The notes under the pieces: generated by a model
The model's input: the letters and a program-made list of their open reading frames with translations, nothing else
What the model was told of the DNA's origin: nothing
The model's database searches: none
Program-made: the position numbers and the translations under genes
Source: a virus
Virus record (IMG/VR): IMGVR_UViG_3300037044_000228
Coordinates: 1 to 64,000 of that record
Length of the DNA stretch: 64,000 nt
Reading direction: 5' to 3' (one strand)
Part shown: piece after piece, positions 3,851 to 58,426 of the stretch
Numbering within the stretch: position 1 is the first letter of the stretch
Layout of the letters: each line of letters opens with the position of its first letter

Positions 3851-3918
3851 TTGTCCCCCATGGGGCAGCGGCGAACAGACCGGGCACGGATGCCCGCAGT
3901 CGTACACCCGGTCGTACA

Positions 3919-5359: not shown

Positions 5360-5402
5360 GCCCGCCCCTTCCGGGATGAGCGATAAATGCCCTATGCGGC
5401 GG

Positions 5403-6430: not shown

Positions 6431-6453
6431 GGTGGTCTTCCTTGCTGTGGTGG

Positions 6454-6798: not shown

Positions 6799-6801
6799 CC
6801 G

Positions 6802-11176: not shown

Positions 11177-11850
11177 TCCCGCTTGTGCTCAGCCGGCGCG
11201 GCGGGCGGACGCACCAGCCACATGGGCTGCGACCACTCGGCGATCTCGCCGGGCGTGCCGGCGAAGACCGCGAAGGCGTCGGGCGCGCCGGTGAATGTCA
11301 GCACATTCGCTGTCATCGACCGGCGCAAGGTGGCGCGGGCCTGCAGCGCGGCGTCGCGTGACCATCCGTTCGCTTGCGCCAGCGCGCGCGCCGTGACGGC
11401 GGCGAGTTCACAGTCTTCGACCGAGAGGGGCAGCGGCGCACCGTTGGCGCGCTTTGGCAGCATGGTGCGCCACTCGGGGAACGGCGTGGCGCGTTCGCTG
11501 ATCGTCGCGGCGAAGGCGTCGGCGGTGCGCGGGTCGATGCGCAACTGGTCGCCCTCGACGATCAACCGCACGCGGTCGGAGACGCCTTCGTGCGCGCGCA
11601 GCGCCGACTTCATGGCGTCCATCATCGGTCGCGGGACGCGCAGCGTGACCGGCCGCGAGACCGCGCCCGTTTCGTCGCGCAGCACGATCATGCGACGCGC
11701 GTCCATGCTCACCAGCACCACGCCGCGCGTGCTTGGCTCGATGCGCACGCCGGTGATGTCGTCATCACCGAACGCACGGTCGGCGGCGAACCGCTGCGCG
11801 ATACGGAAGAGATCGGCGCGCACGGACAGCTTGAGGGGGGCATCGGTCAT
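11167..11850 (-). CDS. DNA polymerase III beta-clamp-like protein (partial fold)
   Basis: ITGVRIEP...VLVSMDARRM and PFPEWRTMLP resemble beta-clamp domain motifs. Confidence 0.5.
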   Translation of the reverse strand: MTDAPLKLSVRADLFRIAQRFAADRAFGDDDITGVRIEPSTRGVVLVSMDARRMIVLRDETGAVSRPVTLRVPRPMMDAMKSALRAHEGVSDRVRLIVEGDQLRIDPRTADAFAATISERATPFPEWRTMLPKRANGAPLPLSVEDCELAAVTARALAQANGWSRDAALQARATLRRSMTANVLTFTGAPDAFAVFAGTPGEIAEWSQPMWLVRPPAAPAEHKRECA

Positions 11851-12770
11851 TGCTTCGGCGCTCCCGGTCCCGGCAGCGCCGGGCGCGCGATCGTCGCCCA
11901 CTGCCATTGCAGCTGCTTGGCGACGACGTCGGTGTCTTCCCACAGCGGCGGCGTCGTGAGCCCGGGCGGCGGGGCGCATGCGGCGGCGACGGCGGCGAGC
12001 ATGGCATGCGCGTCACTCGGATCCTTGCTGACTTTCGGCCAGATGATCCGGTTGCGCGCGATCCCTTGCATCAAGGACTTGAGCAGCGCCGGCGACGCGC
12101 CGAAGGTCATCTTGACCAGCACGTCCATGTCCTCTTCCGGGATCGCCATGCCCGGCGAATACATGCGGATGATGGAATAGCGCTCGTCCTCGCCGGGCAG
12201 GCCGATCTCGATGTGAATGTCGAACCGCCGCCAGATGGCGGGATCGATCGCGTCCTTGCGGTTGGTCGTCGCAAAGGTGAGCGACTTGTGCTGCTCGAGG
12301 CGGCGCAACAGAGCATTCACCGACTTCGCGCTTTCGCGATCGGCGCTCTGTCCACTGGACGCGCCACGATTGGGCGCGAGCGAGTCGAACTCGTCGAAGA
12401 GGATGGCGACCTTGCCCTTCATCTTCTTCACCGCGTCGAAGAACTGGCCGATGTTTTCCGCCGACGCGTTGACCCATTTCGACTGCAGCGTTTCCGCCTT
12501 CACGGAGACGAGCGGCATCTTGAGCGCAGCGGCGAGCGTGTGCCCCAGCGTCGTCTTCCCGGTGCCGGGCGGGCCGAAGAACAAGCCCTTCACGCGCGGT
12601 TCCAGGCCGTGCGCGGCGAGCTCGTCCTTCGCGTTGATCTCCGCAAGCCAGTCCTGAATCGCGGCGCGCTGTGCGGGCGAGAGGATGGGCGCGACGAGAT
12701 CGCCCGGCATGAGCACGTCGCCATAACCGCCGAGGATCTGCGCGGCGTCTCCGATGGTGTTGTGTGTCAT
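11847..12770 (-). CDS. AAA+ ATPase
   Basis: Walker A GPPGTGKT, Walker B LFDEFD, TTNR...IDPAIWRRFD. Confidence 0.92.
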   Translation of the reverse strand: MTHNTIGDAAQILGGYGDVLMPGDLVAPILSPAQRAAIQDWLAEINAKDELAAHGLEPRVKGLFFGPPGTGKTTLGHTLAAALKMPLVSVKAETLQSKWVNASAENIGQFFDAVKKMKGKVAILFDEFDSLAPNRGASSGQSADRESAKSVNALLRRLEQHKSLTFATTNRKDAIDPAIWRRFDIHIEIGLPGEDERYSIIRMYSPGMAIPEEDMDVLVKMTFGASPALLKSLMQGIARNRIIWPKVSKDPSDAHAMLAAVAAACAPPPGLTTPPLWEDTDVVAKQLQWQWATIARPALPGPGAPKQ

Positions 12771-13348
12771 CGGCCGCGGCCCTTCTTGTCATCGGCCTGC
12801 GTTTCGGGCCCGCGCGCTTCGTCTGCAGGCGCGTCACCGTTGGCGTCCCCGTTGGCGTCCCCGTTGGCGTCACCATCCGGCTTCGGCGCCGTTTTTTTCG
12901 GCCGCTTCCAGGAGTCCGGCACGCTCATGCCGTCGCTGCCGCCGGCGACGATGTGGCCTTCGTCCCACGCACACGCGGTCGCGAAGACGCCGCGCGCGGC
13001 TTCCATTTCCTGTTCGGGCGCGCCGGGGCCATCATCGCCGGGTTTCTTCGGCGGACCGCTCTTGCGTCCCGCCAGGCGCGCGCGGGCGCTGTCGCCGAGG
13101 GGCGTTCCGTCCAGCATGCCGAGGGCGGCGCGATAGATGTCGAGCAGATCCTGTTCGTTGACGATCTCTTCCTTCGCCAGCCGCCGTTCGCGGATGATCT
13201 TGTTCATGGTTTTGACGTCGAAGCCTTCGGACTTCGCCATCTTCTTCTTGTCGGCGATGCGCGCTTCGACATCGGCCTTGATGTCGAGATCAATCTCGAT
13301 CGCTTCAATGTGCTCGAGCAGACGCTCGCCGGCGGAACGGTTCAACAT
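12767..13348 (-). CDS. GapR/DUF2312-like nucleoid-associated protein with C-terminal extension
   Basis: ERLLEHIEAIE...AKSEGFDVKTMNKIIRER...LLDIYRAALGML. Confidence 0.85.
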   Translation of the reverse strand: MLNRSAGERLLEHIEAIEIDLDIKADVEARIADKKKMAKSEGFDVKTMNKIIRERRLAKEEIVNEQDLLDIYRAALGMLDGTPLGDSARARLAGRKSGPPKKPGDDGPGAPEQEMEAARGVFATACAWDEGHIVAGGSDGMSVPDSWKRPKKTAPKPDGDANGDANGDANGDAPADEARGPETQADDKKGRGR

Positions 13349-13385
13349 GCGGGATCCTCGGTTGTGGTGGCGGTTCTGGTGGTGC

Positions 13386-13778
13386 TCACGCGATCTGGCG
13401 TGCGGCGGCGGGTCGAGTGGTGGAAGACGGCGCGCTGCGGCGCGCGGAACGCACGCGGGCCGCAGCGCCGGCGCCGATGGCGACGCCCATGCCTTCGAGC
13501 AGCAGCACCGGACCGCCGGCGTTGTCGGTGGCGTCCGTGTCGGCGCCGGGCGCGAGCAGCGCAGCGGTTTCCACGCGCCGCGTGGCGATGACCACTTCGC
13601 CGGCCATGCGCCGCACCTTGCTGGCGACGCATGCGCGCACGGCGCGTTTGAGCTTGGCGAGGGACGTCGCGGATTCCGCAGTCTGCAGCAGCGCGGCGAA
13701 CTGGTCGACGATCTCGTCGCGCAGCGCGAAGGCCTTGTCTGCGGCGACGGTCTCGGGGCGTTCCGGCTTGAGCCTCAT
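13386..13778 (-). CDS. hypothetical protein
   Basis: Coupled ORF. Confidence 0.5.
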   Translation of the reverse strand: MRLKPERPETVAADKAFALRDEIVDQFAALLQTAESATSLAKLKRAVRACVASKVRRMAGEVVIATRRVETAALLAPGADTDATDNAGGPVLLLEGMGVAIGAGAAARVRSARRSAPSSTTRPAAARQIA

Positions 13779-41925: not shown

Positions 41926-42645
41926 ATGGCGACGACTCGAAAGACGGCGGGCACTGGCAAGAAAGCGGCGACGGCGCGCAAGGGGGCTAAGGCCCGTGCG
42001 CGGGCGGCGTCGAAGGGAGGCGCGCAGGCGAAGGCCGGCGGCTCCACCCGCCCGAAGAGCGTCAAGGCCATGGCGGCGTCCGCGGCACAGGGGCCAGCGG
42101 ACGCCGCCGCACCACATTCCCCACCGCGCGATGCGGCCCACGCTGCGCCAGACTCCACGATCAAGACAACGGGCCTGAAACCGGGACCGCGTTCCGCGCA
42201 GCGCAGCGGCGATCATGTGCGCGCCGACGGGGCTGAGACCAAGGCGAACGAGAAGTACCCGGTTGAGCTCGTGGAGATGGCGCTGCGCACTTCGGCGGGC
42301 GTGTATTCAGTCGCGGCCGAGAAGATCGGGTGCGCGCGCAACACGATCGCGAACTACGTCAAGCGCTACCCCTATCTCGCCGATGCGCTGACCGAGATCG
42401 AGGACGGCAACGTCGATCTGGGCGAAGCGCAGCTGATCTCGGCCATGTCGAAGGGCGAGTCGTGGGCGGTGCTCTTCTACCTGCGCTGCAAGGGCAAGCG
42501 GCGCGGTTACACCGAACGGCACGAAATCACCGGCGCCGGGGGCGGGCCGGTCAAGGTGGCCTCAATCGACTTGAGCAAGCTGAACCTCACCGATGCCCAA
42601 CTCGCTGTCCTCGATCAAATCGCAGGCGCCGCAGCACTCGGCTGA
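41926..42645 (+). CDS. terminase small subunit (putative)
   Basis: HTH AAEKIGCARNTIANY, FYLRCKGKRRGYTERHEITGAGGGPV; precedes terL. Confidence 0.75.
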   Translation: MATTRKTAGTGKKAATARKGAKARARAASKGGAQAKAGGSTRPKSVKAMAASAAQGPADAAAPHSPPRDAAHAAPDSTIKTTGLKPGPRSAQRSGDHVRADGAETKANEKYPVELVEMALRTSAGVYSVAAEKIGCARNTIANYVKRYPYLADALTEIEDGNVDLGEAQLISAMSKGESWAVLFYLRCKGKRRGYTERHEITGAGGGPVKVASIDLSKLNLTDAQLAVLDQIAGAAALG

Positions 42646-44332
42646 GTGGCTGGCGAGCGAGCAGGGGCGTATCGACGTCGACCGCGAGATCTGTCGCCGG
42701 TCCATGATCGCCTTCGTGCGCAAGGCCTGGCACATTCTCGAACCGAGCACGCCCTACGTCGAGGGCTGGGTTCTCTACGCGATCTGCGATCACTTGATGG
42801 CGGTGAGCCGCGGCGAGATCTCGCGCCTGCTCATCAACGTGCCGCCGGGCATGATGAAGTCGCTGCTCGTGTCGGTGTTCTGGACCGCTTGGGAGTGGGG
42901 TCCCCTCGGCGCGCCCGGCATCAAGACGATCACGGCGTCCTACCAGATCGACCTTGCCATCCGCGATGCGCGGCGGCTACGCATGCTGGTCGAAAGCGAG
43001 TGGTTCCAGGCGCGCTGGCCGCTGGCGATGGCGTCGGACCAGAACCAGAAGACCCGCTTCGAGAACGTCAAGACCGGCTTCCGCGCGGCCAAGCCCATCA
43101 CGTCGCTCACCGGCGATCGCGGCCACCGTCTCATCATCGACGACCCGCACTCCATCAAGACGGCGGAAAGCGACGCACAGCGCAACGAGGCGGTGCGCGA
43201 GTTTCGCGAAGCCGCGCCGAGCCGCATGGTCGATCCGACCAAGTCAGCGATCGTCGTCATCATGCAGCGGATCCACCAGGGCGATGTGTCCGGTGAGATC
43301 ATCGACCGCATCGGCGGTTACGAGAAGCTGATTCTGCCCATGGAGTACGATGTCGAGCGTCCGTGCACGACGTCGATCGGCTTTAAGGATCCGCGCACCG
43401 AGGATGGCGAGCTTCTCTTTCCCGAGCGCTTTCCGGCCGAAGTTGTGGAGCGCGACAAGGCGGTGCTCGGTCTCTATGCGAGCGCGGGCCAGTTCCAGCA
43501 GGCGCCGTCGCCGCGCGCCGGCGGTCTCTTCATCAAGTCCAAGGTCGGCGTCATCGCCGCGGTCCCGGCGGGCTCCGTGCGCGTGCGCAAATGGGACTTG
43601 GCGGGAACCGAGAAGGGCGTGAACAAGAAGGGCGTCGCGAACGATCCGGACTTCACGGTCGGCCTGCTCATGGCGAAGACCACCGACGGGCGCAGCATCG
43701 TCGAAGACGTCGTGCGGCTGCAGGCCTCTCCCTTCGACGTCGAACAAGCGGTGCTGCGCACGGCGCAGCAGGACCGCGCGGCGCATGGCAATTCCGTCGT
43801 CGTGCATCTCAACATCGATCCGGCGCAGGCGGGCATCCACCAGGCCAACACCTACACCAAGCTGCTCAACGGCTTCATCGTGAAGATGGAGCCCGAGCGC
43901 GGGTCCAAGGAGTACCGCGCATTTCCCGTCGCGGCCCAGGTCGAAGCGGGAAACGTCTTCATGGTTCCAGGGCTGTGGAACGCGAAGTTCCTCGAAGAGA
44001 TCGGGCTCTTTCCGCAGGGTCGCTACAAGGACCAGGTCGACGCACTCAGCGGCGCCTACAACTTTATGAACAATCCGATGGACGGCCAGCACTTCTGGGA
44101 CTGGATGATGAAGGCTGTCGCAGAGCAGGAAGCCGCGAAGGCCGAGGCGCGTGCGGAAGCGCCGGTCGACCGCGTGCCGATGCACCCGCCGGTCGGCGTG
44201 CTGTCTGCGACCGGGCGGATGGGCGACGGCTACAATCTCGATAAGCACGGCGTCATGTGGGTCAAACCGGACGACGCTCTGATCTTCGCGCGCGCAGGCT
44301 TCAGGCGCGTCGAAATCCAACAGGCTGCGTGA
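42593..44332 (+). CDS. terminase large subunit
   Basis: LLINVPPGMMKS, LIIDDPH, MQRIHQGD, WDLAGT, FPQGRYKDQVDA. Confidence 0.93.
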   Translation: MPNSLSSIKSQAPQHSAEWLASEQGRIDVDREICRRSMIAFVRKAWHILEPSTPYVEGWVLYAICDHLMAVSRGEISRLLINVPPGMMKSLLVSVFWTAWEWGPLGAPGIKTITASYQIDLAIRDARRLRMLVESEWFQARWPLAMASDQNQKTRFENVKTGFRAAKPITSLTGDRGHRLIIDDPHSIKTAESDAQRNEAVREFREAAPSRMVDPTKSAIVVIMQRIHQGDVSGEIIDRIGGYEKLILPMEYDVERPCTTSIGFKDPRTEDGELLFPERFPAEVVERDKAVLGLYASAGQFQQAPSPRAGGLFIKSKVGVIAAVPAGSVRVRKWDLAGTEKGVNKKGVANDPDFTVGLLMAKTTDGRSIVEDVVRLQASPFDVEQAVLRTAQQDRAAHGNSVVVHLNIDPAQAGIHQANTYTKLLNGFIVKMEPERGSKEYRAFPVAAQVEAGNVFMVPGLWNAKFLEEIGLFPQGRYKDQVDALSGAYNFMNNPMDGQHFWDWMMKAVAEQEAAKAEARAEAPVDRVPMHPPVGVLSATGRMGDGYNLDKHGVMWVKPDDALIFARAGFRRVEIQQAA

Positions 44333-45150: not shown

Positions 45151-48100
45151 GTGATGTCGAGCGACGCGCCGCGAGCGCAAACCGGGGGCAGGGCGTTCGC
45201 GCTTTCCCCGACCGTTGTGCAGGTCCGCTTTGGCGACACGCCGATGATGGCGCCCGGCGCCGGCAATGCTGCGGCCGACTGGTTCGGCCCGCTTTCTCCG
45301 ATGAAGCCCGCTGCCCCGCCGTTCGTTACGGGCCGGCGCTTCGACTATCAGTCCGGCTACAACCTGCAGACCCGGGCGCGGCCCGGCGAGCTCGGCTTCG
45401 ACCAGCTGCGCGCGTTCGCCGACGCCTACGACATTCTCCGGCTCGTGATCGAGACCCGCAAGAGCCAGATGTCGCGTCTGAAATGGGCCATCCTGCCGCG
45501 CGCGCGGCCCGATGCGGCGACCATGAAGGAGGTCCAGACCGACCATCTCAACCCGATCTGCAAGCAGATCACGGACTTCCTGCGCCGCCCCGATCGCCGC
45601 CTGTTCTGGAACGACTGGCTGCGCATGGCGCTCGAGGATCTCTTCGTTCTCGATGCGCCCGCGATCTGGAAGCGGCGCAACCGCGCGGGCCAACTCTACG
45701 CGCTTGAGATCATCGACGGCGCGACCATCAAGCCGATCATCACCGAAGCGGGGCGCCAGCCCGAGCGTGGCCCCGCGTTCCAGCAGATCCTCAAGGGTCT
45801 TCCGGCGGTGGAATACGACTCGCGCGATCTGATGTACCTTCCGCTCAACCGCAGACCGCACAAGGTCTATGGGTACGGTCCGGTCGAACAGATCATCATG
45901 ACCGTCAACATCGCGCTCAAGCGCCAGATCTGGCAGCTGCAGCACTGGACGGAAGGCAACCTGCCGCAAGCGCTTATCGGCGTCCCGGAAAGCTGGACGC
46001 CTGAACAGATCAGCGCGTTCCAGACCAACTTCGACGACCTGCACACCGGCAACATGGCCGAGCGGCGTCGTGCGCGGTTCGTGCCGGCGGCGTCGGCGAA
46101 GAGCTACACGCCCACGCACAACGACAGTGAGATGTTCGGTCGCGGCGAAGAGTGGCTGGCGCGCGTCGTCTGCTATGCGATGGGCGTCGATCCCACGCCG
46201 TTCATCCAGAGCGTGAACCGCGCGACGGCGGAAAGCGCAGCAGAAGAAGCGATCAAGGACGGCATCGCGCCCGTCCAAAGCTGGGTCAAGAACCTCGTCG
46301 ACGGCGTCATCATCGACGAGTTCGGCACAAACGAAGTCGAGTTCGTCTGGCAGGACGACACGATCGCCGATCCGGAGAAGCTCACGAAGGTGATCTGCTT
46401 GCAGGTCGAGTCGGGGCTGATCTCGCTCAACGAGGCGCGCGCCGAACTCGGCAAGACGCCTGTGGATCACGCCGCGTTCAACGTGCCGATGGTGAAGACG
46501 GGCGTTGGCTACGTGCCGGTCGAACCGCCCGCGCAAGCCGACGGCCTGGGCAACATGATGGGCCCGGGCGGCGAGAACCTCGGACCGGCGCCCGCGCCAG
46601 GCGGCTTCGTCGGCCCGGGCGGTGAGATGCTTGCGCCGCCGGAAGGCGCGGCTGCGGGCGGTGAGAACGTGGCGCCGGCTGATGACGCGGGCGCGGAACC
46701 AGGCGCGGGGGCTGACGCGGAGCCGCCGCCAGACGATGAACCGCCGGAAGGTGGCGGTCCTGCTGGCGGCGGAGGCGCGCTCCCGGGCGACAACGGCGGC
46801 GGTGGCGGACCGGCCCCCGCAGCGGGCGACGACGAAGCCGCTGCTGCGGCGGCGGCCATGAGCGACGACGACCTCGCGGCAGTCGAAGAGGAAATGGCGG
46901 CGCAGGGGATCGATGTCGCCGATGCGGGCGACGGCGAGGCCGAGAGCCAGGCCGATCTCTTCGCAGCCGATGAAGACCGCGTCGTGCCTGCGGGCGCGAT
47001 GACGGCAGATCAGATCGACGACGGCGGCGACGTGCGCAGCGAAACGCCCGGCGCCAACGTCGCGCCGGCGGACGTTCCCGGCGAGGGCGGCGCTGCTGGC
47101 GTGGAGGCGGAAGCCGCACCGACGGATGAACCTGGGGATGGCGACGACGAACCGCAACCGCCGCGCCCGCCGAGCAAGCGTGACGTGCGACGCGCGGCGC
47201 TTGATCGACTCGGTGCGCTTGGCGCGCTGCGTCGCGGCGAACCGGCTGGCGATCTGGCGAAGGCTGCAGAGCGCGGCGCGGACCCCGGCAAGAACGAGCG
47301 CGGGTCTGCGCGCATCTCGCGCAAGAAGGGCGGGGCGCCTTACGGCGTCAATGAGCGCGGCGACTGGCGCGACGTCAAGAGCCCGCGCATGATCCGTGGC
47401 ACGCCGCGTCGCGCGCCCGATGGCAGCGGCCCGATCAATCGCGACGAAGCAGCGCTCGACGAGATGTTCAACCGCGTCACTGCCGAAAAGGAAGCGGCGC
47501 GTGATCGCAAGGCCCGGCGTGCGCAGCAACGCATGGGCGGACGTCGTTACCTGCACCCGGATCGCACGGCGAGCGGCCGCGCCGAGATCGTGAAGGGCTT
47601 CGGCGTTCATGGCTTCTGGAACGGCACGGAGCCGCACCGGGGCGGCGGTGGCGCGCGTGGCGGATCAAGGCGCGGCGCGCAAGCGGGCGTCGGCGGCGGC
47701 GCTGCGAGCGGCGGCGCGGAAGCGAAGATCGCGGCGCATCGGGTGGCGCAACGCGCGGCGGCGACCATCGCGGCGTCAGCTGCTGCGGCTGCACCGCCGC
47801 GTCCGTCTGTGGGCGAAGGCCTTACCAGGCTCGGGCGCGGACGCTCCAAGGACGTCTATGCGCACCCGACCAACAAGAACCGCGTCATCGTTTCGATGCA
47901 ACGCCACGCAGCGACCGAAGCGTTTCTCGACTTCTCTCGCGCCGCGCACGCCGCCAAGGCGCCGATCGCGCAGCATCTCCCCAACCCGTCGGCGATCAAG
48001 GTCGAGGCGGGCGGCGTGACGTTCCAGACAGCACGCCTGCAACCGAACACGACGCCGGTGCGCATCGGGCGCGATGAGAACGGCTTCTATCTCAACGGCC

Positions 48101-48744
48101 TGCCGAAGACCCACCCGCAACATGCGCCGCTGCTCGCGACCGTGACCGCGCTCGACAGCTATCTCAAGCAGGCGCTCCCGGGATCGCGGCACTACTTCGA
48201 TCTGAGTGCGCAGAACTTCATGGTCACGCGCTCCGGCAAGATCGTGATGAACGATCCCGTCGAGGGCGGCGCGGCGATCCAGGCGCGCGCCATGGCGCCG
48301 AGCTTTCCCGCAGCGCCAGCGCGTGCGCCGGCGAGACCGAAGGCCGCTTCCGCGCCGCGTCCTGCAGCGGCGAACGCGGCTGCGGCTGCGGCCGCACAAC
48401 CAGCAGCACGGCCCGCACGCGCGACGCCCACGAAGGCCGAGCAAACGCGCGCGGCGCAGTTCCGCGCCTCGGCGGGCAACGGTCTGCCTGAGTGGATGAC
48501 CATGGGCACGCGGCCCGCGAAACTCGCGACGATGCGTTGGGCGGCGAAGGGCGATCCGGCGGCGATCGCGTCGCGACTGCGCTCCCTGCCGCGCGAGATC
48601 GACTTCCAGCGCCAGACGCTCGAGCGGGCGCCGAAGAGCCATCAAGCAGTGGAACGTCGTCGACTCGCGAAGCTGGAAGCCGAGCATGCCGCGTTGCGCG
48701 CCGCGCGATCGGCGTCGCGTGGCGGCGGCGGACCGGCGCGGTGA
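45151..48744 (+). CDS. portal protein with long C-terminal extension (acidic linker, cargo tag, kinase-like domain)
   Basis: First ~460 aa portal-like (WFGPLSPM, LEDLFVLDAP, YGYGPVEQI, ISLNEARAELG); later GFGVHGFW tag and LGRGRSKDVY...DLSAQNF...NDP. Confidence 0.88.
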   Translation: MMSSDAPRAQTGGRAFALSPTVVQVRFGDTPMMAPGAGNAAADWFGPLSPMKPAAPPFVTGRRFDYQSGYNLQTRARPGELGFDQLRAFADAYDILRLVIETRKSQMSRLKWAILPRARPDAATMKEVQTDHLNPICKQITDFLRRPDRRLFWNDWLRMALEDLFVLDAPAIWKRRNRAGQLYALEIIDGATIKPIITEAGRQPERGPAFQQILKGLPAVEYDSRDLMYLPLNRRPHKVYGYGPVEQIIMTVNIALKRQIWQLQHWTEGNLPQALIGVPESWTPEQISAFQTNFDDLHTGNMAERRRARFVPAASAKSYTPTHNDSEMFGRGEEWLARVVCYAMGVDPTPFIQSVNRATAESAAEEAIKDGIAPVQSWVKNLVDGVIIDEFGTNEVEFVWQDDTIADPEKLTKVICLQVESGLISLNEARAELGKTPVDHAAFNVPMVKTGVGYVPVEPPAQADGLGNMMGPGGENLGPAPAPGGFVGPGGEMLAPPEGAAAGGENVAPADDAGAEPGAGADAEPPPDDEPPEGGGPAGGGGALPGDNGGGGGPAPAAGDDEAAAAAAAMSDDDLAAVEEEMAAQGIDVADAGDGEAESQADLFAADEDRVVPAGAMTADQIDDGGDVRSETPGANVAPADVPGEGGAAGVEAEAAPTDEPGDGDDEPQPPRPPSKRDVRRAALDRLGALGALRRGEPAGDLAKAAERGADPGKNERGSARISRKKGGAPYGVNERGDWRDVKSPRMIRGTPRRAPDGSGPINRDEAALDEMFNRVTAEKEAARDRKARRAQQRMGGRRYLHPDRTASGRAEIVKGFGVHGFWNGTEPHRGGGGARGGSRRGAQAGVGGGAASGGAEAKIAAHRVAQRAAATIAASAAAAAPPRPSVGEGLTRLGRGRSKDVYAHPTNKNRVIVSMQRHAATEAFLDFSRAAHAAKAPIAQHLPNPSAIKVEAGGVTFQTARLQPNTTPVRIGRDENGFYLNGLPKTHPQHAPLLATVTALDSYLKQALPGSRHYFDLSAQNFMVTRSGKIVMNDPVEGGAAIQARAMAPSFPAAPARAPARPKAASAPRPAAANAAAAAAAQPAARPARATPTKAEQTRAAQFRASAGNGLPEWMTMGTRPAKLATMRWAAKGDPAAIASRLRSLPREIDFQRQTLERAPKSHQAVERRRLAKLEAEHAALRAARSASRGGGGPAR
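47593..47706 (+). repeat. cargo-tag repeat copy 1 (others at 49943-50002 and 56963-57076)
   Basis: Encodes KGFGVHGFWNGTEPHRGGGG; copies differ at synonymous positions. Confidence 0.95.
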
Positions 48745-49279: not shown

Positions 49280-50035
49280 ATGCGCAAGGATGCGACGTTC
49301 GCCGCCCCTGCGTCAGCGACCACCGGTCTCGCGGCGCACGATCTCGAGGGGCAGGGTCGCAATCAGCGACGGCTCGCGCGTCTCGCGGCGCGGCGTGCGG
49401 ATCCATCTTCGGGCGAGACGCGGATGGTGCTGCGTCCCGTCGCTGACGTGAACCCAATCACATCGGAAGTGTTCAACGATCTTGAGCCGCCGGAAGCGAT
49501 CACGCTCCGGCCGGGCTGGGATCCCATCTCCGAGATCCCGGTCGCCGACACCGACACCATCGTCGACGTAGTGAGCGCGCTCGAGCAGTGCGTGCCGGCA
49601 TGGCGCATACACCCTGAAACGCTCCCGCTCGTCGCGGTCCCGCGCGGCGAGATCGTCGCGCTGCAGGCGGGCGTGAAGGCCGAGAAGGTGGCGGGCATCC
49701 AGGCCAAGGCGGCGCGCGGCGACCGCAGCGGACCGCGACCGGTCGGCGTCCAGTTCAACGGGCGCACCTATGTGCGGGACGGCCACCACCGTACGATCGC
49801 GGAGCTCCGCGACGGCGCGAAGGCGGTCGAGATGCGCGTGGCGGTGATCGCCGAAGCCAAATCCCTTTCTACTCCTTCCGGGGGCAAAGACATGACCACG
49901 AGCGCGTTCGCGTCGGATATCAAGCGCGCGAGCGCCTTCGCCAAGGGTTTCGGCGTCCACGGCTTCTGGAACGGCACTGAGCCGCACCGGGGCGGCGGTG
50001 GCGGCGGCGCAGCGGACTCAGCGCGTGACGCGTGA
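49280..50035 (+). CDS. ParB/Srx-like domain protein running in frame into a cargo-tag leader (internal ATG 49892)
   Basis: YVRDGHHRTIA; C-terminal MTTSAFASDIKRASAFAKGFGVHGFW... Confidence 0.65.
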   Translation: MRKDATFAAPASATTGLAAHDLEGQGRNQRRLARLAARRADPSSGETRMVLRPVADVNPITSEVFNDLEPPEAITLRPGWDPISEIPVADTDTIVDVVSALEQCVPAWRIHPETLPLVAVPRGEIVALQAGVKAEKVAGIQAKAARGDRSGPRPVGVQFNGRTYVRDGHHRTIAELRDGAKAVEMRVAVIAEAKSLSTPSGGKDMTTSAFASDIKRASAFAKGFGVHGFWNGTEPHRGGGGGGAADSARDA

Positions 50036-51266
50036 AGTGCAGGATCTGGTGAACCGGCGCGCGAGCGGCGACAACCCTCTCGAGAACAAGCGCCCGGCGG
50101 ATTATGCCGAGCGCAAGGCGTTCGTCGACTCGATGGCGCGGGGCTCTGCGCGCGACAATGGCAGGGCGGAGACGCGAGCGCAGCGCGCCGAATCCCGGCA
50201 ACGGGCGATCGAGTCAGGACGTGCGAAGCCGTCAACGCAAGGGATACTTCCCAACCGGGGCGGTCAGCGCGCTATCGCCAACCAGGCGCGCCAGCAAGCG
50301 AAGGCCGATCGCGACGACCAGTTCCGGTCGGAGCACAACGCGGAGAGCGCGCTACGCTCGACGAGTTTCGGTCGCGGACGCGAGAGCGGTTCTGCGCGCC
50401 GGTCCGATGTCGAAGTGGCGTCCATCAATACCGCGGCAGCCACGCGCGCCGCGCGCAACGCCGAACGCCGCGAGCGCGTCGCCGACTATCTGCGCGAGCG
50501 TGGCGGGCGTCCGAAGCCGAAGAACGGCGGCGCCATCGAGAGCGCGGCGGTACGGATCGCGACACGCGAGAACGCGAAGCAGACCGCGCGCGCCGAGCAG
50601 CTGGAAGCGCGCGCCGAGAGCGCCCGGGCGCGCATGCAAGCCGCACCCGGCGGATCGTCACAGCGGATTCGTCTCAGCCAGGAGGCAGACCGGCTCAGGG
50701 CGCAGGCGCAACGCGCCCGCGATGCTGCGGAGAGCGCAGCGAACGTCGCTGGCCTTACGCGCGCGCCTGCGGCGGCGGCGCCGTCAACCGCGCCCACAAC
50801 GCCGGTGCGACTCCGCGATCTCGGTCTTACGACGACAGCGCCGGCAGCGGCGAGCGCTGCGCCAGCCGCTGGCGGCAAGTTCAACGTCCAGAGCGAACTC
50901 CGCCGGCTCGAAGAGGGCGGTGCGCCCGGCACTTACTCGCCGGCTCAACGGAGCGCACTCCGTCAAGAGATCAACGAGGCTTTGGCGAGCGCGAACAACC
51001 GTGTGACCATCGGACAAAGTGGCGACGGCGGTGGCGGACGGGCGGCGGCTCAGGCGCAACGTCTGCAACAAATCGAACGAGACCTCGCTAAACCTGCAAC
51101 CACCGTCACGCGCGCCGCCGACCGCGCGGTGGACCGCGCCGCAGCCAAGCATGGCGTCGACACCGACATCGCGCGCGGCATCGCGGACGTGGCGCGGCGC
51201 GCCAATCCGCGCGCGAGCAACCGCGAGATCGAACGCCAGATCCGCGAATACGCGGGCCAACAGTAG
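49998..51266 (+). CDS. Arg/Ala-rich helical protein; probably the frameshifted continuation of the tagged ORF
   Basis: No convincing RBS; removing one G near 50003 fuses it to the tag; shares F....ELxRLExGGAP with the 56909 ORF. Confidence 0.65.
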   Translation: MAAAQRTQRVTREVQDLVNRRASGDNPLENKRPADYAERKAFVDSMARGSARDNGRAETRAQRAESRQRAIESGRAKPSTQGILPNRGGQRAIANQARQQAKADRDDQFRSEHNAESALRSTSFGRGRESGSARRSDVEVASINTAAATRAARNAERRERVADYLRERGGRPKPKNGGAIESAAVRIATRENAKQTARAEQLEARAESARARMQAAPGGSSQRIRLSQEADRLRAQAQRARDAAESAANVAGLTRAPAAAAPSTAPTTPVRLRDLGLTTTAPAAASAAPAAGGKFNVQSELRRLEEGGAPGTYSPAQRSALRQEINEALASANNRVTIGQSGDGGGGRAAAQAQRLQQIERDLAKPATTVTRAADRAVDRAAAKHGVDTDIARGIADVARRANPRASNREIERQIREYAGQQ

Positions 51267-51382: not shown

Positions 51383-53938
51383 ATGTCCAAGACCAATCTT
51401 GCCGTCGCAGCGCCGGCGCTCGCGATGTTCGTTCCCATCACGAAGGTCGATGAAGAAAAGCGCCTCGTCTATGGGCGCATCACGGCGGAAAGCGTCGACC
51501 GCTCGAACGAGATCCTCGACTATGCGGCGTCCAAGCCGCACTTCGAGAAGTGGTCGCAGGGCTTTTCCGATGCGACCGGCGGGAAGTCGAAGGGCAACCT
51601 GCGCGCGATGCACAAGAACGTGAGCGCGGGCAAGTTCACCGAGATCGTCTTCAACGACGACGCCAAGGAGATCCACGGCGTCGCGAAGGTGGTCGACGAT
51701 AACGAGTGGCAGAAGGTGCTCGAGGGCGTTTACACCGGTTTCTCGATCGGTGGAAAGTACGCCTCGCGCGCGCCCGACGCCGTGGAGAAGGGCAAGACCC
51801 GCTATGTGGCGCTGCCCGGTGAAGTGTCGCTCGTCGACACACCCTGCCTGCCGATCGCGACCTTCGAGTTCGTGAAGGCCGACGGCGCGTCCATGCAAAA
51901 GAACTTCGTGCCGTGGCAACCCGACAACAACACCCTGTCGGTGCGGGCGCGCGAGCTCGCCAAGGCCGCAGGCGATGAGACTGCGTGGCCCGACCACATC
52001 GGCGCCGCGCGCGAGGATCTGATCGCCAAGCGCTTCGCGGCATCGTCTGCCGAAGAGGGTGCGGCCCAGGAAAACCCCGCGACCGGCGCGGGCGGTGCGG
52101 GTGGCGAAGCGGCAGGCGAGGGCGCTGCAGCCGATGTCGCTGCTGCTGCGGCCGCTGCGGCGGACGTCGCCAAGCGCGATGAAGGTCCGAGCGCAGCCGA
52201 GCTTGGCGTGACGCAGGAATGGAAGGCCCCCGACGGGCAAGTCTTCCTTACAAAAGCCGATGCGATGCGCCATGCATCGTCCCTCAGCCGCAATCCCGTC
52301 GCCGATGCGCTCGCGCGCGCCGATGCGGTGATGAAGGGCACAGTCGTGGCGGGCGACTATGGCGATGTCGCCTACGCCGACACCGGACTTCTCAAGGACG
52401 CCAAGCCGCGCTTTCCCATCGACTGCCCGCTGAATGTGCGCGCCTCGTGGGCGCATTTCTGCAAGGGCGCCGGCGACATGGGCTACGCCGAAGCAGAACT
52501 CACCAAGATCGCGACCGCGATCGCAACCGCATGGGTGGACATCGTCAACCCGAACGGCCCGCCGTCGGTGGAGCAGATGGACGCCGTCGCCGATGTGGGC
52601 CTGTTTACCGATGCGCTCGCTGTGCTCGGCAAGCGCGCCTATCTCAACACGCGTGATGGCGGCGGGAACGGCAGCTACACCGGATCCATGGCGGAAGCCT
52701 GCAGCCCGTGGAGCCATCAAGGCACGGGTCTCAACTTCGTGCACCAGATCGCCTCACTCGTGAGCGATGCGGTGCGCGCGTCCAACCAGGCCGCGCAACT
52801 TGACGGCGAAGACAGCCCGATCGCAGCGCAGTCGCGCGACATGCTCGCGGCGACCGCGACGCTGCTCGCGGAAGCCACACACGGCGAAGTGGCGCGCATC
52901 CTCGACGAAGTGGAAGCGTTCGACGGCGATCCCGATGCGGAGGGCATGGAAGAGTTCGCCGACATGGAGGACGCCCAGAAGCTCGCGGCCGACATCGTCG
53001 ATCTCGTGAAGGCCGACGACGTGCTTCTCGATGCGATGGATGAGATCGCCGAGCAGCGCGAGGCTGGCTATCTCGTCAAGTTCCAGGAGTGCGTCGGCGC
53101 GCTTCCGGCCGACCGCAGCGACGACGCGGCGGACACGCTGGATCTCGTCGGCGGCGGGTTGAGCAAGATGGCGGACGCTGCGGCGCCGGCCTTCCTGTCA
53201 CGCGGCCTGCTCGCCATCGCGAAGATGAGCGATCACGTCGCGTCGTTCTCCGATCTCGTCGCCGGACTGCGCGAATCCGGTCTCGCAAAAGGGACCGACC
53301 CGCTTCTGGTGGCGAACGATATTGTGGAGACCCTCGGCCAGATCGTCATCGCCATGGCGCATGACGAAGTCGCCGAGATCCATGGCGAGATCGACGTCAC
53401 GAAACTCGATGCGGCGGACCAGTACGGCAAGGCGGCAGGCGAGCTCTTCGAACTCGTGAAGGCCGACACCGAAACACTTGAGAAGGTGGGCGCGCGCAAC
53501 AGCAAGACCGACAAGGCCATGATCCAGTCCATCCACGACTACGCCGAAAAGCTCGGCGCGGCGTGCGGCGTGGAGAAGGCCGCAGGCGGCGAGGGGGAGG
53601 GCGATCTAGCGAAGGCGGACGATCCGGTGAAGGCCGAGAACGCGGCGCTCAAGAAGAGCGTCGACGAAGCGGTCGAGGGCATCAAGAAGCTCACCGACAA
53701 ACTCGCCGAGCAGGACGCGACGATCAAGAAGCTGAGCGAACAGCCGCAGCAGGGCGGACCGGTGCGCACCGATTTGAACAAGGGCGGCGGTGGCGCAAGC
53801 GGCGTCGATCAAGAGCAGCTGACCGCGTACCTCGCGAAGTTCGCGAAGATGACGCCCGATCAACAGGCGACTGAAGTCATCAAGATGCAGCAGCTGCAGC
53901 CGCAGTCGTTCACCGCGCGCATGGCCCCGGCAGGCTGA
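51383..53938 (+). CDS. prohead serine protease (XkdF/HK97-like) fused to scaffold region
   Basis: KRLVYG...NLRAMH...AGK...YTGFSIGG...EVSLVDTPC; long acidic helical C-terminus. Confidence 0.85.
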   Translation: MSKTNLAVAAPALAMFVPITKVDEEKRLVYGRITAESVDRSNEILDYAASKPHFEKWSQGFSDATGGKSKGNLRAMHKNVSAGKFTEIVFNDDAKEIHGVAKVVDDNEWQKVLEGVYTGFSIGGKYASRAPDAVEKGKTRYVALPGEVSLVDTPCLPIATFEFVKADGASMQKNFVPWQPDNNTLSVRARELAKAAGDETAWPDHIGAAREDLIAKRFAASSAEEGAAQENPATGAGGAGGEAAGEGAAADVAAAAAAAADVAKRDEGPSAAELGVTQEWKAPDGQVFLTKADAMRHASSLSRNPVADALARADAVMKGTVVAGDYGDVAYADTGLLKDAKPRFPIDCPLNVRASWAHFCKGAGDMGYAEAELTKIATAIATAWVDIVNPNGPPSVEQMDAVADVGLFTDALAVLGKRAYLNTRDGGGNGSYTGSMAEACSPWSHQGTGLNFVHQIASLVSDAVRASNQAAQLDGEDSPIAAQSRDMLAATATLLAEATHGEVARILDEVEAFDGDPDAEGMEEFADMEDAQKLAADIVDLVKADDVLLDAMDEIAEQREAGYLVKFQECVGALPADRSDDAADTLDLVGGGLSKMADAAAPAFLSRGLLAIAKMSDHVASFSDLVAGLRESGLAKGTDPLLVANDIVETLGQIVIAMAHDEVAEIHGEIDVTKLDAADQYGKAAGELFELVKADTETLEKVGARNSKTDKAMIQSIHDYAEKLGAACGVEKAAGGEGEGDLAKADDPVKAENAALKKSVDEAVEGIKKLTDKLAEQDATIKKLSEQPQQGGPVRTDLNKGGGGASGVDQEQLTAYLAKFAKMTPDQQATEVIKMQQLQPQSFTARMAPAG

Positions 53939-54105: not shown

Positions 54106-55626
54106 ATGCCCGATGGGATGACGACGATCGAACAACCGACGAACGCCATGGAGGCGATTCTCGCGGTTCTCGCGAAGGCCAATGAGATCACCGACCCGCG
54201 CATGGCGCACCTGAACCTCGCCAAAGCGACGTTCGGCCAGGCGGGCGGACCGACGACCGGTCTCACTTTCTACGATCTCGAGCCGGGCGCAAAGCTCATG
54301 TACCCGGTGCTCACGCCGCTCCGTAACGCCATCCCCCGCGTGAGCGGAAAGGGCGGCGTCGAGGCGTCGTGGCGCGCGATCACGGCCATCAACACGCAGA
54401 ATATCCAGATCGGCGTGTCGCAGGGCCACCGTGGCGGCGTGGTCGCCGTGCAGACGAAAGACTACACCGCCGCCTATCGCGGCATCGGCACGGAAGCGTC
54501 CGTCAACTTCGAGGCGCAATACGCAGGGCAGGGCTTCGAGGACATTCGTGCGCTTGGCGCGCGGACCGGTCTCGAGTCCCTCATGCTCGGCGAAGAAGCG
54601 GTCATCCTCGCGGGCAACGGCGGCAACACGTTCGGCGTGACGCCGACGCCTGTCTGCGTCGGCTCCAACACCGGCGGCTTCCTCGCCAACGCCGCCTACA
54701 ACGTCTATTGCGTCGCGCTGACCTATGCCGGTTATGTCGCGTCGACAGTGGCGAGCGGCGTTGTGGGCCAGGTCACGCGCACGAACGCCGACGGCTCCAC
54801 CGACACGTTCGGCGGCGGCTCGGCGAACAAGTCCGTTGCGGGCACGGCGACGATCTCCGGCGGCGGCGTCGGCAAGATCACCGCGACGCTTACCGGCGTC
54901 CCCGGCGCTTCGGGCTACGCATGGTTCTGGGGCACGGCGGGCAGCGAACTGCTGGGCGCGATCACGACGGTTCCCACTGTCGTCATCAACGCGGCAGCGA
55001 CCGGTTCGCAGAACGCTTCGGCGATCACGGGTGACAACTCCGTCAACTCGACGATCTTCTCGGGCATGATCCAGATCGCGGCCACGTCGGGCTCGGGCTC
55101 GTATGTCAAGGATCTCGGCGGTGCGGGCTTCACGTCCGACAACGCCGGCGGCATCGTCGAAATCGACGATATGCTCAAGCACTTCTGGGACAACTATCGT
55201 CTGTCCCCCGATGAACTGTGGGTCTCCGCTCAGGAGCTCAACAACATCGGCAAGAAGATCCTCGGCGCGGGCGGCGCTGGCACCGGTGCGTTCCGCATCA
55301 ACATCAACCAGAGCCAGGGTGCGATCGGCGGCGGCATCGCCGTGGCGTCGTACCTCAACAAGTTCAGCATGGCGGGCGCGAAAGTGCTCGACATCAAGCT
55401 GCACCCGAACATGGCTCCCGGCATGGTCTTGGCGGTGACGAAGCGGCTCCCGTATCCGCTCTCCGACGTCAACAACCTGATGCAGATCCGCTGCCGTCAG
55501 GACTACTACCAGATCGAATGGCCGCTCATCACGCGCCAGTACCAGTACGGCGTCTATGCGGACGAAGTGCTGCAGCACTACTTCCCGCCGTCCCTGGGCA
55601 TCATCCAGGGCGTCGGCAACCTCTAG
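54106..55626 (+). CDS. major capsid protein
   Basis: Follows protease; GLTFYDLEPGAKLMYPVLTPLRNAIPRV...YQYGVYADEVLQHYFP; AGGAG RBS. Confidence 0.85.
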   Translation: MPDGMTTIEQPTNAMEAILAVLAKANEITDPRMAHLNLAKATFGQAGGPTTGLTFYDLEPGAKLMYPVLTPLRNAIPRVSGKGGVEASWRAITAINTQNIQIGVSQGHRGGVVAVQTKDYTAAYRGIGTEASVNFEAQYAGQGFEDIRALGARTGLESLMLGEEAVILAGNGGNTFGVTPTPVCVGSNTGGFLANAAYNVYCVALTYAGYVASTVASGVVGQVTRTNADGSTDTFGGGSANKSVAGTATISGGGVGKITATLTGVPGASGYAWFWGTAGSELLGAITTVPTVVINAAATGSQNASAITGDNSVNSTIFSGMIQIAATSGSGSYVKDLGGAGFTSDNAGGIVEIDDMLKHFWDNYRLSPDELWVSAQELNNIGKKILGAGGAGTGAFRININQSQGAIGGGIAVASYLNKFSMAGAKVLDIKLHPNMAPGMVLAVTKRLPYPLSDVNNLMQIRCRQDYYQIEWPLITRQYQYGVYADEVLQHYFPPSLGIIQGVGNL

Positions 55627-56253: not shown

Positions 56254-56898
56254 ATGGCCGATCCACTCATCGACCTCGCCAACCTTGCGGCGGTGAAGAC
56301 GTACCTGACAGCAGCGGGGCTCGCGCAGCCCGACGATGCGGTGCTCGAGCGGCTTGTGACAGCGGTGAGCCAGCAGATCCAGAGCCATCTCAATCGCCGG
56401 CTGGTGCGCCAGTCCTACACGCAGACCTTCAACGGCCATGGGCGCAACGCGCTCTATCCGCCGCAATTCCCGATCCAGGCGGTGTCATCGGTCACGGTGA
56501 ACGGGCGGGTGGTGAGCGCGGCGAACGGACCGACGGGCGCGGGCTATGTGTTTTCCGAGCAAGCGATCTATCTGCGCGGCGGCGCGTTCGATCGCGGTAT
56601 CCAGAACGTCGTCATCGCCTACGAAGCGGGCTACAACCCGCTCCCTGCCGATCTTGTGCAGGCACTCCACGGCGCGATCGGCGCGCTGACATCTGACGAG
56701 TTTTCCGTCACCGGGCAGGGCATCCCCAAGGGGGTGTCTTCGTACTCGGCTGGCGACCATTCCATTTCTTTCGGCGGCGGCGCAGCGGCGGCGGGCTCGA
56801 GCGCGAGCGGCGATGCGATGCTGCTGCCGCTTGATGGCACGACGATCGCGCAGCTGGCGCCGTATCGGCGCGTGCACGCTGTCGATCTTGGCCGGTGA
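56254..56898 (+). CDS. head-tail adaptor/connector protein
   Basis: LAAVKTYL...YEAGYNPLPADL...LAPYRRV. Confidence 0.75.
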   Translation: MADPLIDLANLAAVKTYLTAAGLAQPDDAVLERLVTAVSQQIQSHLNRRLVRQSYTQTFNGHGRNALYPPQFPIQAVSSVTVNGRVVSAANGPTGAGYVFSEQAIYLRGGAFDRGIQNVVIAYEAGYNPLPADLVQALHGAIGALTSDEFSVTGQGIPKGVSSYSAGDHSISFGGGAAAAGSSASGDAMLLPLDGTTIAQLAPYRRVHAVDLGR

Positions 56899-56908
56899 GG
56901 CGAAACCC

Positions 56909-58426
56909 ATGAGCGACCGCAAGACTTTCGCCAGCGCAGTGAACCGCGCGACAGCCTTCTCGAAGGGCTTCGGCGTCCACGGCTTCTGGAACGGCACGGA
57001 GCCGCACCGGGGCGGTGGTGGTGCGCGTGGCGGCGCGCGGCGGGGCGCGCAAGCGGGCGTCGGCGGCGGCGCTGCAACGCCTGTCGCCAGCGCAGGCGCG
57101 CAAGCCAAGGCCGATGCGGTGCGGGTCGCGCAACGGCAAGGTGCGGTGGAAGTGGCGCGTGCGCCGGCGACTCCAGCCGCAGCGTCGGCGCGTTTCAGTG
57201 CGCGGGATGAACTTTCGCGTCTGGAAGCGGGCGGTGCGCCGCGCAAACTCCGAACGCGCCAGCAGGAAGCGCTCATGCGCGAGGCGATCGCCACGAGTCG
57301 CGTGCGCAACAACGAAGACCCCAAGGTGAGCGCGATCATATCGTCGCTCGGCGGCAACAACGGTACGAAGCTCCCGATCTATGCGGGCGGTCCGAGACAG
57401 GCGCCTGCGCCGGCGCGTGCCGCCAGCGCGGCAGCGGCCGGACCGAACGCCGCGGCGATCGATCGCGTCGCCAACAACATGCACGATGCATGGCGCAAGG
57501 AGTTCGTCGCGGCCAATGGCGCCGGGGCGCAACGCTGGAAGCCGGTGAACCCTGAGAGCGCGGCATGGATCGCGGCCAACCCGCGCGCGATTCCGAAGAC
57601 CCAGATCCGGACCAATCCGGAGACCGGTCAGCAGGAAATCAACATCGCGGGGCTACGCAACAAGCAGCTTCCGCCGAACCAGCACGGCAAGGAAAACGCC
57701 GACGGCGCGCGTCATGCGGTCGAGACGGTCGCGCGCAATCCGCGCGCCAGCGTCGACGAGCATGCAGCGGCGGTGCATCAAGCGTGGCTCGCGCGGAACG
57801 GCTCATGGGCGCCGGCTTCGCAGAAGGTGCCCTACAATCGTCTGTCGGATGCCGACAAGGAAAAGGACCGCGTTATCGTCCGCGCGGCCATGCGCGCGCT
57901 CGGCGTGAAGCCTGAGCCCACTACACCGGCGCGTGCGGCGGCGAACGCTGCGGCGGGCGCGGCTAGATCCAGCGCGAGCGGCGGCGCGACTTCCCTGTCA
58001 GCGGCTCGACGCACTCTCGACGAGGCGCAAGAGCGGTTCCGTGGCGCGTCTGCGACGTACCGCGACGGCGGCGGCAGTGCGGAATCGGTGGCGAACGCCA
58101 ACCGCGCGCTGCAGAACGCACAGGCGGCATGGGCGCGCGCGCGCACCGAGAACGCGGCGCGGTCAACGGAGATCAAACGCGCGCCCGGCGAGAGCCGTAC
58201 CGTGGCGTATCTGCGTGCGGCCGAGGGCAATCTCTCGAGCACACAACGGATCGTGCAGTCCATGGCGTCGCAATCTCGAGCGGAAGTCGTCGCGGTCGCG
58301 CGCGAGCTCGGCTTGCCGGTGCGCGCCAACACCACGAAGGCGAACGCTCTCGCGATGATCTCTGGCCGTGCGGCTAAGAGCGAGTCCGACGCGGCGTTGA
58401 ACGAGCGCATCCGCAACGGCGCGTGA
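56909..58426 (+). CDS. tagged cargo protein with tandem RyR-like repeats and C-terminal Rho-N/HeH-like motif
   Basis: Leader plus GFGVHGFW tag; ANNMHDAWR and AVHQAWLARN...VPYNRLSDADKEKDR; SRAEVVAVARELGLPVRANTTKANAL. Confidence 0.7.
   Translation: MSDRKTFASAVNRATAFSKGFGVHGFWNGTEPHRGGGGARGGARRGAQAGVGGGAATPVASAGAQAKADAVRVAQRQGAVEVARAPATPAAASARFSARDELSRLEAGGAPRKLRTRQQEALMREAIATSRVRNNEDPKVSAIISSLGGNNGTKLPIYAGGPRQAPAPARAASAAAAGPNAAAIDRVANNMHDAWRKEFVAANGAGAQRWKPVNPESAAWIAANPRAIPKTQIRTNPETGQQEINIAGLRNKQLPPNQHGKENADGARHAVETVARNPRASVDEHAAAVHQAWLARNGSWAPASQKVPYNRLSDADKEKDRVIVRAAMRALGVKPEPTTPARAAANAAAGAARSSASGGATSLSAARRTLDEAQERFRGASATYRDGGGSAESVANANRALQNAQAAWARARTENAARSTEIKRAPGESRTVAYLRAAEGNLSSTQRIVQSMASQSRAEVVAVARELGLPVRANTTKANALAMISGRAAKSESDAALNERIRNGA

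Follow-up and report, generated by a model that had tools for sequence, protein, structure and literature searches.

A gene in the window analyzed here, the 64,000-nucleotide stretch that forms the first 64 kb of the 99.6-kb IMG/VR provirus record IMGVR_UViG_3300037044_000228 (GC content 66-70%), encodes a phage portal protein whose C-terminal extension, 740 residues in length, holds a self-contained, minimal kinase-like domain of ~150 residues. On the evidence of profile comparisons this domain belongs to the lineage of the T7 kinase gp0.7 (T7K), and with its relatives it makes up a distinct and very rare T7K-lineage subfamily that has a relocated lysine and serves as a module shuffled among proteins linked to the virion, a portal among them, which is a new combination. 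Its components are already known separately, namely T7K and its anti-defence role, the C-lobe-less kinases of polyvalent proteins, the fusions of effectors to portal and MuF proteins, and the shift of the K72 charge to PKA position 55 in WNK and CAK-chloro; in the literature searched, neither a fusion of portal and kinase nor a phage kinase with a Gly-loop lysine was found described. Our preferred reading, held with rather better than even confidence, is that the portal carries a minimal T7K-homologous kinase that is active and travels in the virion, with K900 replacing the lysine of strand beta-3, and, less certainly, that the kinase is cut off and ejected. The two features on which this reading is founded are as follows:

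45151 to 48744, plus strand: portal gene with C-terminal extension, a single continuous open reading frame (ORF) of 1197 residues from a GTG at 45151
47809 to 48279, plus strand: minimal T7K-like kinase domain, residues 887-1043, delimited by AlphaFold2, fold searches and hhalign

Residues ~887-1043 are predicted to adopt a protein-kinase-like (PKL) fold. The AlphaFold2 model of a 157-residue piece, made with a 13-sequence alignment, has a predicted local distance difference test score (pLDDT) of 92.5 and a predicted template modeling score (pTM) of 0.86, and it presents its elements in the order b1-b2-b3-aC-b4-b5...aE-b6-b9, keeping the N-lobe, alpha-C, alpha-E, the catalytic loop and a DPV motif, without a C-lobe or an activation segment. 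A Foldseek search of the PDB with this model placed HopBF1 (6PWD) first with an E value of 8e-5, followed by MEK1, other eukaryotic kinases and OspG (4BVU; E 1.3e-3), and in the BFVD viral models the top matches were T7-like phage kinases, including those of Xylella Cota, Pantoea SK1, Klebsiella NahiliMali, Yersinia fPS-53 and Pectobacterium Q19, with E values of 3.6e-7 to 1e-4 and template modeling scores (TM) up to 0.66. VIA-align superimposed the model on TTK over 129 aligned residues (Z 9.3, root-mean-square deviation 3.9), and a Foldseek-independent VIA scan of 48,161 chains returned a top 50 consisting almost entirely of kinases and kinase-like enzymes at Z 6.3-8.8, with SAICAR synthetase, APH, YihE and HopBF1 among the latter. 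The SAICAR synthetase matches score as high as those to kinases, and the fold alone therefore does not settle the class of substrate. The initial annotation of this DNA, made from the letters of the sequence, had proposed a kinase domain hidden in the portal C-terminus and named AlphaFold with Foldseek as a check on it; the predicted fold and the near uniformity of the matches in the PDB, BFVD and VIA comparisons bear that proposal out.

The relationship to T7K is carried by profile comparisons. When the family alignment was compared by hhalign with ten T7K homologues (30-100% identical to T7 gp0.7), the two aligned at 97.3% probability with an E value of 1.8e-11 across 139 columns, covering domain residues 3-154, and the family hidden Markov model (HMM) matched T7 gp0.7 itself at E 5e-8 in a single comparison, through the Gly-loop stretch and the stretch holding the catalytic loop and DPV, in collinear order. 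Family members also match the gp0.7 PHROGs phrog_15752, phrog_2828 and phrog_18305 as well as the kinase-clan Pfam families YrbL (YrbL-PhoP_reg) and APH, and the family profile finds two collinear stretches of the BMPR2 kinase at E 0.007. Less sensitive comparisons retrieve only part of this signal: pairwise BLASTP to T7 gp0.7 gives E 0.001 over 38 residues, confined to the stretch from the Gly loop to beta-3, and a tblastn search of 50,697 phage genomes with the domain yields only a marginal match (E 0.6), in two T7-like phages of Klebsiella and there at the gp0.7 locus; with the divergent members P0012 and P0017 as queries, no phage was matched. Taken as sequence evidence, this resemblance is far beyond chance and indicates homology to T7 gp0.7. 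The DPV motif points the same way, as DPV in place of DFG is a hallmark of T7K (PMC13645617). T7K is a proven Ser/Thr/Tyr protein kinase of truncated layout that disarms many bacterial defence systems by mass phosphorylation (PMC13645617). The initial annotation had likened the domain to T7 gp0.7, quoting strings of it that prove correct against NC_001604, and had described T7-type kinases as acting on defence proteins, and on all of these points it agrees with the comparisons and with the published work.

The residues that would make up the active site are distributed along the domain as follows:

47848 to 47850, plus strand: codon of K900, third position of the Gly loop (GxGxxK), Lys invariant
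47890 to 47892, plus strand: codon of V914, in the place of the T7K beta-3 Lys (RVIV vs RVIK), with no conserved Lys in the strand
48199 to 48216, plus strand: catalytic loop D1017-L-S-A-Q-N1022 (DxxxxN), D and N invariant
48253 to 48261, plus strand: D1035-P-V, which takes the place of DFG as in T7K, with D and P invariant; the window reads NDPV

The peptides on which the initial annotation had based its Gly-rich loop, catalytic-loop DxxxxN and metal-binding Asp are encoded exactly at 47821-48270 on the plus strand, within the ORF at 45151-48744. Across 13 family sequences, which are 32-63% identical to the domain of the window, G897, K900, D1017, N1022, D1035 and P1036 are invariant and G895 is nearly so, and the third residue of the DPV motif is V in 10 sequences, L in one and F in two. 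The Gly loop reads G895-x-G897-x-x-K900 (GRGRSKDVY), and its Lys aligns with the third Gly of the BMPR2 sequence GRGRYGAVY, which is PKA position 55. All 13 members have this Gly-loop Lys, a beta-3 strand of the form V-x-V without Lys, and a Val at the PKA K72 position. The T7K homologues show the reverse in 10 of 10 cases, with (V/A)(I/V)K in beta-3 and Ser, Ala or Gly at the Gly-loop position, and hhalign treats their beta-3 Lys as a one-residue insertion at V914. With a Lys at PKA position 55 and none in beta-3, the phrase "WNK-like relocated lysine" of the initial annotation is a correct description of the sequence pattern, and conservation of that Lys among homologues, the lack of which it had named as a refutation, is complete in the 13 members. 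WNK kinases moved the charge of K72 to PKA position 55, as did the CAK-chloro subfamily (Kannan, Taylor and Manning 2007, PMC1821047). By analogy with WNK, K900 probably does the job of the missing beta-3 Lys in holding the phosphates of ATP, and that K900, D1017, N1022 and D1035 are all invariant speaks in favor of a functional active site.

Comparison with known systems defines what the domain shares with each and where it departs. T7K and its Autographiviridae homologues (phrog_2828, phrog_15752) have a homologous core that, like the domain here, is truncated just past the metal-binding Asp, and T7K matches it in the DPV motif, the FDxxxxN catalytic loop and the LGxG...Y.HP...VI pattern of the N-lobe, although sequence identity is only ~22%. 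The differences are that T7K has the beta-3 Lys and lacks the Gly-loop Lys, that in T7, a lytic podovirus, the kinase has an early gene to itself whereas the phage here is temperate and siphovirus-like and encodes the domain as part of a late structural gene, and that T7K carries the SO (shutoff) domain. When the whole portal protein was scanned, no gp0.7-family PHROG or Pfam match to SO was detected outside the kinase core; divergent T7K homologues of prophages and jumbophages are also without SO (PMC13645617). The basic helical domain at the C-terminus of the portal protein occupies the place of this DNA-binding shutoff domain of T7K, a likeness in position only.

The positive charge has moved from PKA K72 to PKA G55 in WNK and CAK-chloro (PMC1821047) and in the family described here, but there is no specific homology between WNK and the domain, and within the T7K lineage the shift would have arisen independently, by convergence; in CAK-chloro, whose substrates are small molecules, the residue is Arg, whereas the domain here has Lys. 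HopBF1 and OspG, the closest solved structures by Foldseek, are bacterial effector kinases in the PDB of ~170-200 residues with a reduced C-lobe. Their sequence identity to the domain is 13-17%, and the VIA Z-score to HopBF1 is only 6.5. Both are type III secretion effectors that are injected into the target cell and keep the canonical beta-3 Lys, and, unlike the phage-borne domain here, they act against eukaryotic hosts. Kinase-PolyVal (PF18762) is likewise a C-lobe-less kinase of phage polyvalent proteins, predicted to modify host proteins after injection, but its Glu before strand 2, its His-Asp insert and its Verrucomicrobia and Bacteroidetes hosts do not fit the domain here (PMC5512222). 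Identity with Kinase-PolyVal was rejected, as PF18762 gave no match at E <= 10 in the record or at E <= 1 in eight members, and by these profile searches the kinase module of the window belongs to the T7K lineage and not to Kinase-PolyVal. The portal-PBECR, portal-2H, portal-InPase and portal-MuF fusions resemble the present protein in having an accessory enzymatic domain at the portal C-terminus that presumably travels inside the head (PMC5512222); the payload here differs from them in being a predicted protein kinase, and MuF is absent.

The family is very small. When 1.84 billion representatives were scanned exhaustively with HMMER, 17 matched, about 13 of them true members, and all members are metagenomic singletons. 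Pattern scans of genome contigs and viral contigs with the single domain gave no match, a degenerate-pattern scan of 185,579 species genomes found no member, and a word-based search for stand-alone forms of 86-275 residues found none; five such forms were found by the exhaustive HMMER scan. The architectures represented among the members are these:

P0005, 1218 residues: a second portal fusion with the same portal-linker-kinase layout, its kinase 55% identical
P0004, 791 residues: a ParB-like (DGHHR) fusion
P0006, 1281 residues: a multidomain protein with an HExxH motif
P0009, P0012, P0013, P0014 and P0017, 158-217 residues: stand-alone forms that end directly after NDPxE
P0007, 3934 residues: an internal module, with LPD22 at the N-terminus and also Zeta_toxin
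P0011, 3300 residues: an internal module, with LPD22 at the N-terminus

The kinase does sit in the portal C-terminus, as the initial annotation had it, and this architecture recurs in an independent homologue, P0005. P0007 and P0011 fit the definition of polyvalent proteins, and the protein encoded in the window, for its part, joins a portal to a single enzymatic payload and has no LPD domain. On a 70-kb IMG/VR phage contig, the 3300-residue protein P0011, encoded at 3779-13681, has LPD22 at its N-terminus, phrog_9880 at its C-terminus and the kinase module between them, and its gene comes directly after two internal-virion-protein genes and a gene for a lysozyme-like protein of 623 residues.

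The carrier of the domain is identified by its profile matches and by the genes around it:

45331 to 46992, plus strand: portal domain, residues 61-614 by phrog_2662, with Pfam Phage_portal at residues 139-434
42593 to 44332, plus strand: terminase large subunit (phrog_38, E 1.5e-65), which sets the head-module context

PF04860 (HK97/SPP1-type portals) matches the portal at E 1e-17 with 64.7 bits, compared with a curated cut-off of 39.1, and phrog_2662 matches it at E 5e-68; the public gene call for the ORF at 45151-48744 (P0003) is of 1196 residues from an ATG at 45154. The terminase gene lies upstream and genes for protease-like, capsid-like and head-tail adaptor proteins lie downstream, in what is a late structural head module. 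Long chance ORFs are frequent in DNA of 66-70% GC, and the GC content by codon position was therefore examined. In the region of the kinase domain the in-frame GC at third positions (GC3) is 0.84-0.90, and in the linker the GC at first positions (GC1) is very high, as expected for Gly, Ala, Asp, Glu and Pro codons; the profile along 45151-48744 shows that the reading frame is coding throughout.

The closest cultured relatives are the Brevundimonas siphophages Polewnik and Strzyga, whose portals are 52% identical and are portal-MuF fusions of 774 residues in which MuF occupies the same position as the extension does here. In Polewnik, the portal gene (8962-11286) has an extension that is a MuF-like domain. 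Among 80 related IMG/VR phages the portal ORF ranges from ~447 to ~1034 residues, and lengths that vary so widely in one lineage mark the C-terminus as a variable accessory slot. Outside the kinase, the extension consists of the following parts:

46528 to 47220, plus strand: acidic, low-complexity linker rich in Gly, Ala and Pro, residues 460-690, with 50 D+E and 8 K+R
47221 to 47592, plus strand: basic region, residues 691-814, partly common to the second portal-kinase fusion P0005
47593 to 47649, plus strand: adaptor motif KGFGVHGFWNGTEPHRGGG after EIVK, residues 815-833, predicted to be disordered, a candidate processing or targeting signal or a recombination joint
47713 to 47787, plus strand: pre-kinase helix AEAKIAAHRVAQRAA..., residues 855-879, pLDDT ~85
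48280 to 48516, plus strand: basic linker rich in Ala and Pro, residues 1044-1122, predicted to be disordered
48517 to 48723, plus strand: C-terminal basic helical domain, residues 1123-1191, pLDDT 85-95

Helices like the pre-kinase helix also precede the kinase in P0004 and P0005. The acidic linker, 231 residues that directly follow the portal domain, would if stretched out be long enough to span a tail.

The adaptor motif is not confined to the portal gene. It occurs three times as KGFGVHGFWNGTEPHRGGGG, at 47593-47649 in the portal extension, at 49943-49999 in a ParB-like ORF and at 56963-57019 in an ORF of 537 residues, and a hydrophobic-x-Lys site precedes each copy. In the portal the motif, which runs from residue 815 onward, is followed by a Gly-rich stretch, and this region is predicted to be disordered. 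A core of ~60 nucleotides is nearly identical in DNA among the copies, the few differences being synonymous, and the first and third copies have ~110 nucleotides in common, including the Gly-rich stretch after the motif. The ParB-like ORF (49280-50035, 251 residues, DGHHR) ends with the second copy, stopping 13 codons past the motif, and its homologue is the N-terminal part of P0004, in which a ParB-like region is fused to the kinase. KGFGVHGFWNGTEPHRGGGG therefore marks the joint between carriers (portal, ParB-like protein, short leader) and payloads. This motif may have arisen by recombination, as a joint, or may act as a signal for a protease or for targeting, and the two may also be combined. 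A possible enzyme for processing lies downstream:

51383 to 53938, plus strand: protein of 851 residues with an N-terminal head-maturation-protease-like domain (XkdF/S78-like; phrog_9427, E 7.5e-9; PF14550, E 4.5e-4, below its cut-off)

HK97-type S78 proteases cleave after Lys, and the 851-residue protein is a candidate for whatever processing the portal extension may undergo.

The course of events that we propose begins with the position of the extension. Portal C-termini face the capsid interior, which would put the extension inside the head in up to twelve copies per virion. There the kinase domain would be tethered to the portal by a disordered linker of ~430 residues, and an active kinase would be carried in the virion. 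It is less certain that the kinase is released, possibly through a cut that the prohead protease, which is S78-like, makes after K815, just before the shared motif GFGVHGFWNGTEPH; once free, the kinase would exit together with the DNA, and host proteins would be phosphorylated by it ahead of phage gene expression, as by a virion-delivered counterpart of the early-expressed kinase of T7. The initial annotation had likewise proposed packaging with each portal subunit, release by the protease and injection against defences, and in this part its interpretation has circumstantial support only. The context that suggests delivery comprises the late structural module, the relatives that lie beside internal-virion-protein genes, the motif after a hydrophobic-x-Lys site, and the downstream protease gene. 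Effector fusions to portal and MuF proteins are predicted to be injected (PMC5512222). An extended form of the proposal, which we regard as possible though doubtful, is that up to twelve copies are cut at K|GFGVHGFWNGTEPH and ejected to phosphorylate defence proteins before transcription, that the adaptor is a general tag for loading and releasing cargo on three head-module proteins, and that the relocated lysine is a third independent instance of the WNK solution, supporting catalysis in the smallest protein kinase known (~150 residues).

Several observations weigh against the preferred reading of an active, virion-carried kinase. None of the 80 related IMG/VR portals has the kinase domain, which makes it an accessory that is dispensable for portal function. 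The structural Z-scores of 8-9 are moderate by themselves, and the case is for that reason not rested on structure alone. The Glu of alpha-C (E923) is conserved in only 10 of the 13 members, and kinase activity with no beta-3 Lys is assumed by analogy. As regards release, cleavage at K815 is possible at what is a candidate site only, the near-identity of the KGFGVHGFWNGTEPHRGGGG DNA means that the motif may be a recent recombination joint and not a selected signal, and the covalent tether to the portal means that the domain could not leave the capsid unless cut.

Four other explanations of the domain were weighed. Loss of the beta-3 Lys from all 13 members would be accounted for if the domain were a pseudokinase or ATP-binding scaffold, incapable of phosphotransfer and serving as a binding module that, for example, sequesters a host factor or organizes the capsid interior; the missing C-lobe and activation segment are in keeping with this, as is the absence from 9 of 13 members of the catalytic-loop His of T7K (DxHxGN). 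Pseudokinases, however, usually lose several of the residues that are retained here, where the catalytic Asp, the Asn, the DPV Asp and the compensating Lys are all invariant among sequences of 32-63% identity to the domain of the window. In WNK and CAK-chloro catalysis goes together with the same charge shift (PMC1821047), and minimal kinases can be active, as T7K, HopBF1 and OspG are (PMC13645617; PDB titles); we consider the pseudokinase improbable. A somewhat more serious contender, though still an unlikely one, is an active kinase that is never ejected and works in the producing cell or the assembling head, perhaps on scaffold or capsid proteins or, late in infection, on host proteins. It would suit a late, structural gene and a domain covalently tethered to a portal by a linker whose cleavage is putative only, and portal proteins can moonlight in the infected cell (bioRxiv 10.64898/2026.01.27.700999). 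Against it are the occurrence of the module in giant polyvalent proteins adjoining internal-virion-protein genes, a class that is predicted to be injected (PMC5512222), the fit of the motif after hydrophobic-x-Lys and the downstream protease gene with processing, and the consideration that a counter-defence enzyme made late gains most when carried to the next host.

The two remaining explanations concern the substrate and the gene itself. Weak profile matches to APH (E 0.002) and YrbL, a structural likeness to SAICAR synthetase (Z ~9) and to APH on a par with that to protein kinases, and the lack of the substrate groove of a C-lobe would all be compatible with a kinase that acts on a small molecule, such as an aminoglycoside, a nucleotide or a signaling molecule, and not on proteins. 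The best statistical match by a wide margin is nevertheless the T7K protein-kinase family, and HopBF1 and OspG, which phosphorylate proteins, are deposited as effector kinases. T7K, itself a proven protein kinase, has the same truncated layout (PMC13645617), and a small-molecule kinase is accordingly rated as very unlikely. The possibility that the fusion is an artefact of annotation or assembly, the kinase being a separate gene joined to the portal by a chance ORF in high-GC DNA or through a lost stop codon, is brought up by the many long spurious ORFs of such DNA, the low complexity of the linker and the split appearance of the neighboring motif-bearing gene at 49280-50035. It can be given hardly any weight, as GC3 and GC1 fit coding in frame over the whole ORF, the independent metagenomic homologue P0005 is fused likewise, and no Met occurs from residue 815 up to the kinase.

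The anti-defence enzyme T7K is an early gene product (Nature 2026, PMC13645617), and a homologue built into the virion would point to a strategy of enzyme-first, genes-later delivery, one that suits a temperate phage without a privileged early region. The family would also be a natural experiment in kinase chemistry, with a core of ~150 residues in which the ATP-anchoring lysine has been moved from beta-3 to the Gly loop, a shift that defines WNK and of which just one further microbial group had provided an example (Kannan et al. 2007, PMC1821047). As a very rare module in virion-linked or polyvalent contexts, the domain offers a clean test case for the shuffling of phage "warhead" domains between carriers.

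Some features of the surrounding DNA remain to be described. The C-terminal basic helical domain of the portal protein (~70 residues) has no Pfam or PHROG match. The 537-residue ORF with the third motif copy (56813-58426) lies between adaptor and neck genes and has KGFGVHGFWNGTEPHRGGGG near its N-terminus; it gave only a weak, sub-threshold OEP match in Pfam and none in PHROGs. At 54106-55626, where the major capsid gene is expected, a protein of 506 residues is encoded that matches phrog_13692, to which no function is assigned. Finally, in the G-rich run of the ParB-like ORF at 49280-50035 a second ORF, of 422 residues (49998-51266), starts in a different frame, and the whole of 49280-51266 may be a frameshifted or split gene that once comprised a carrier and its payload.

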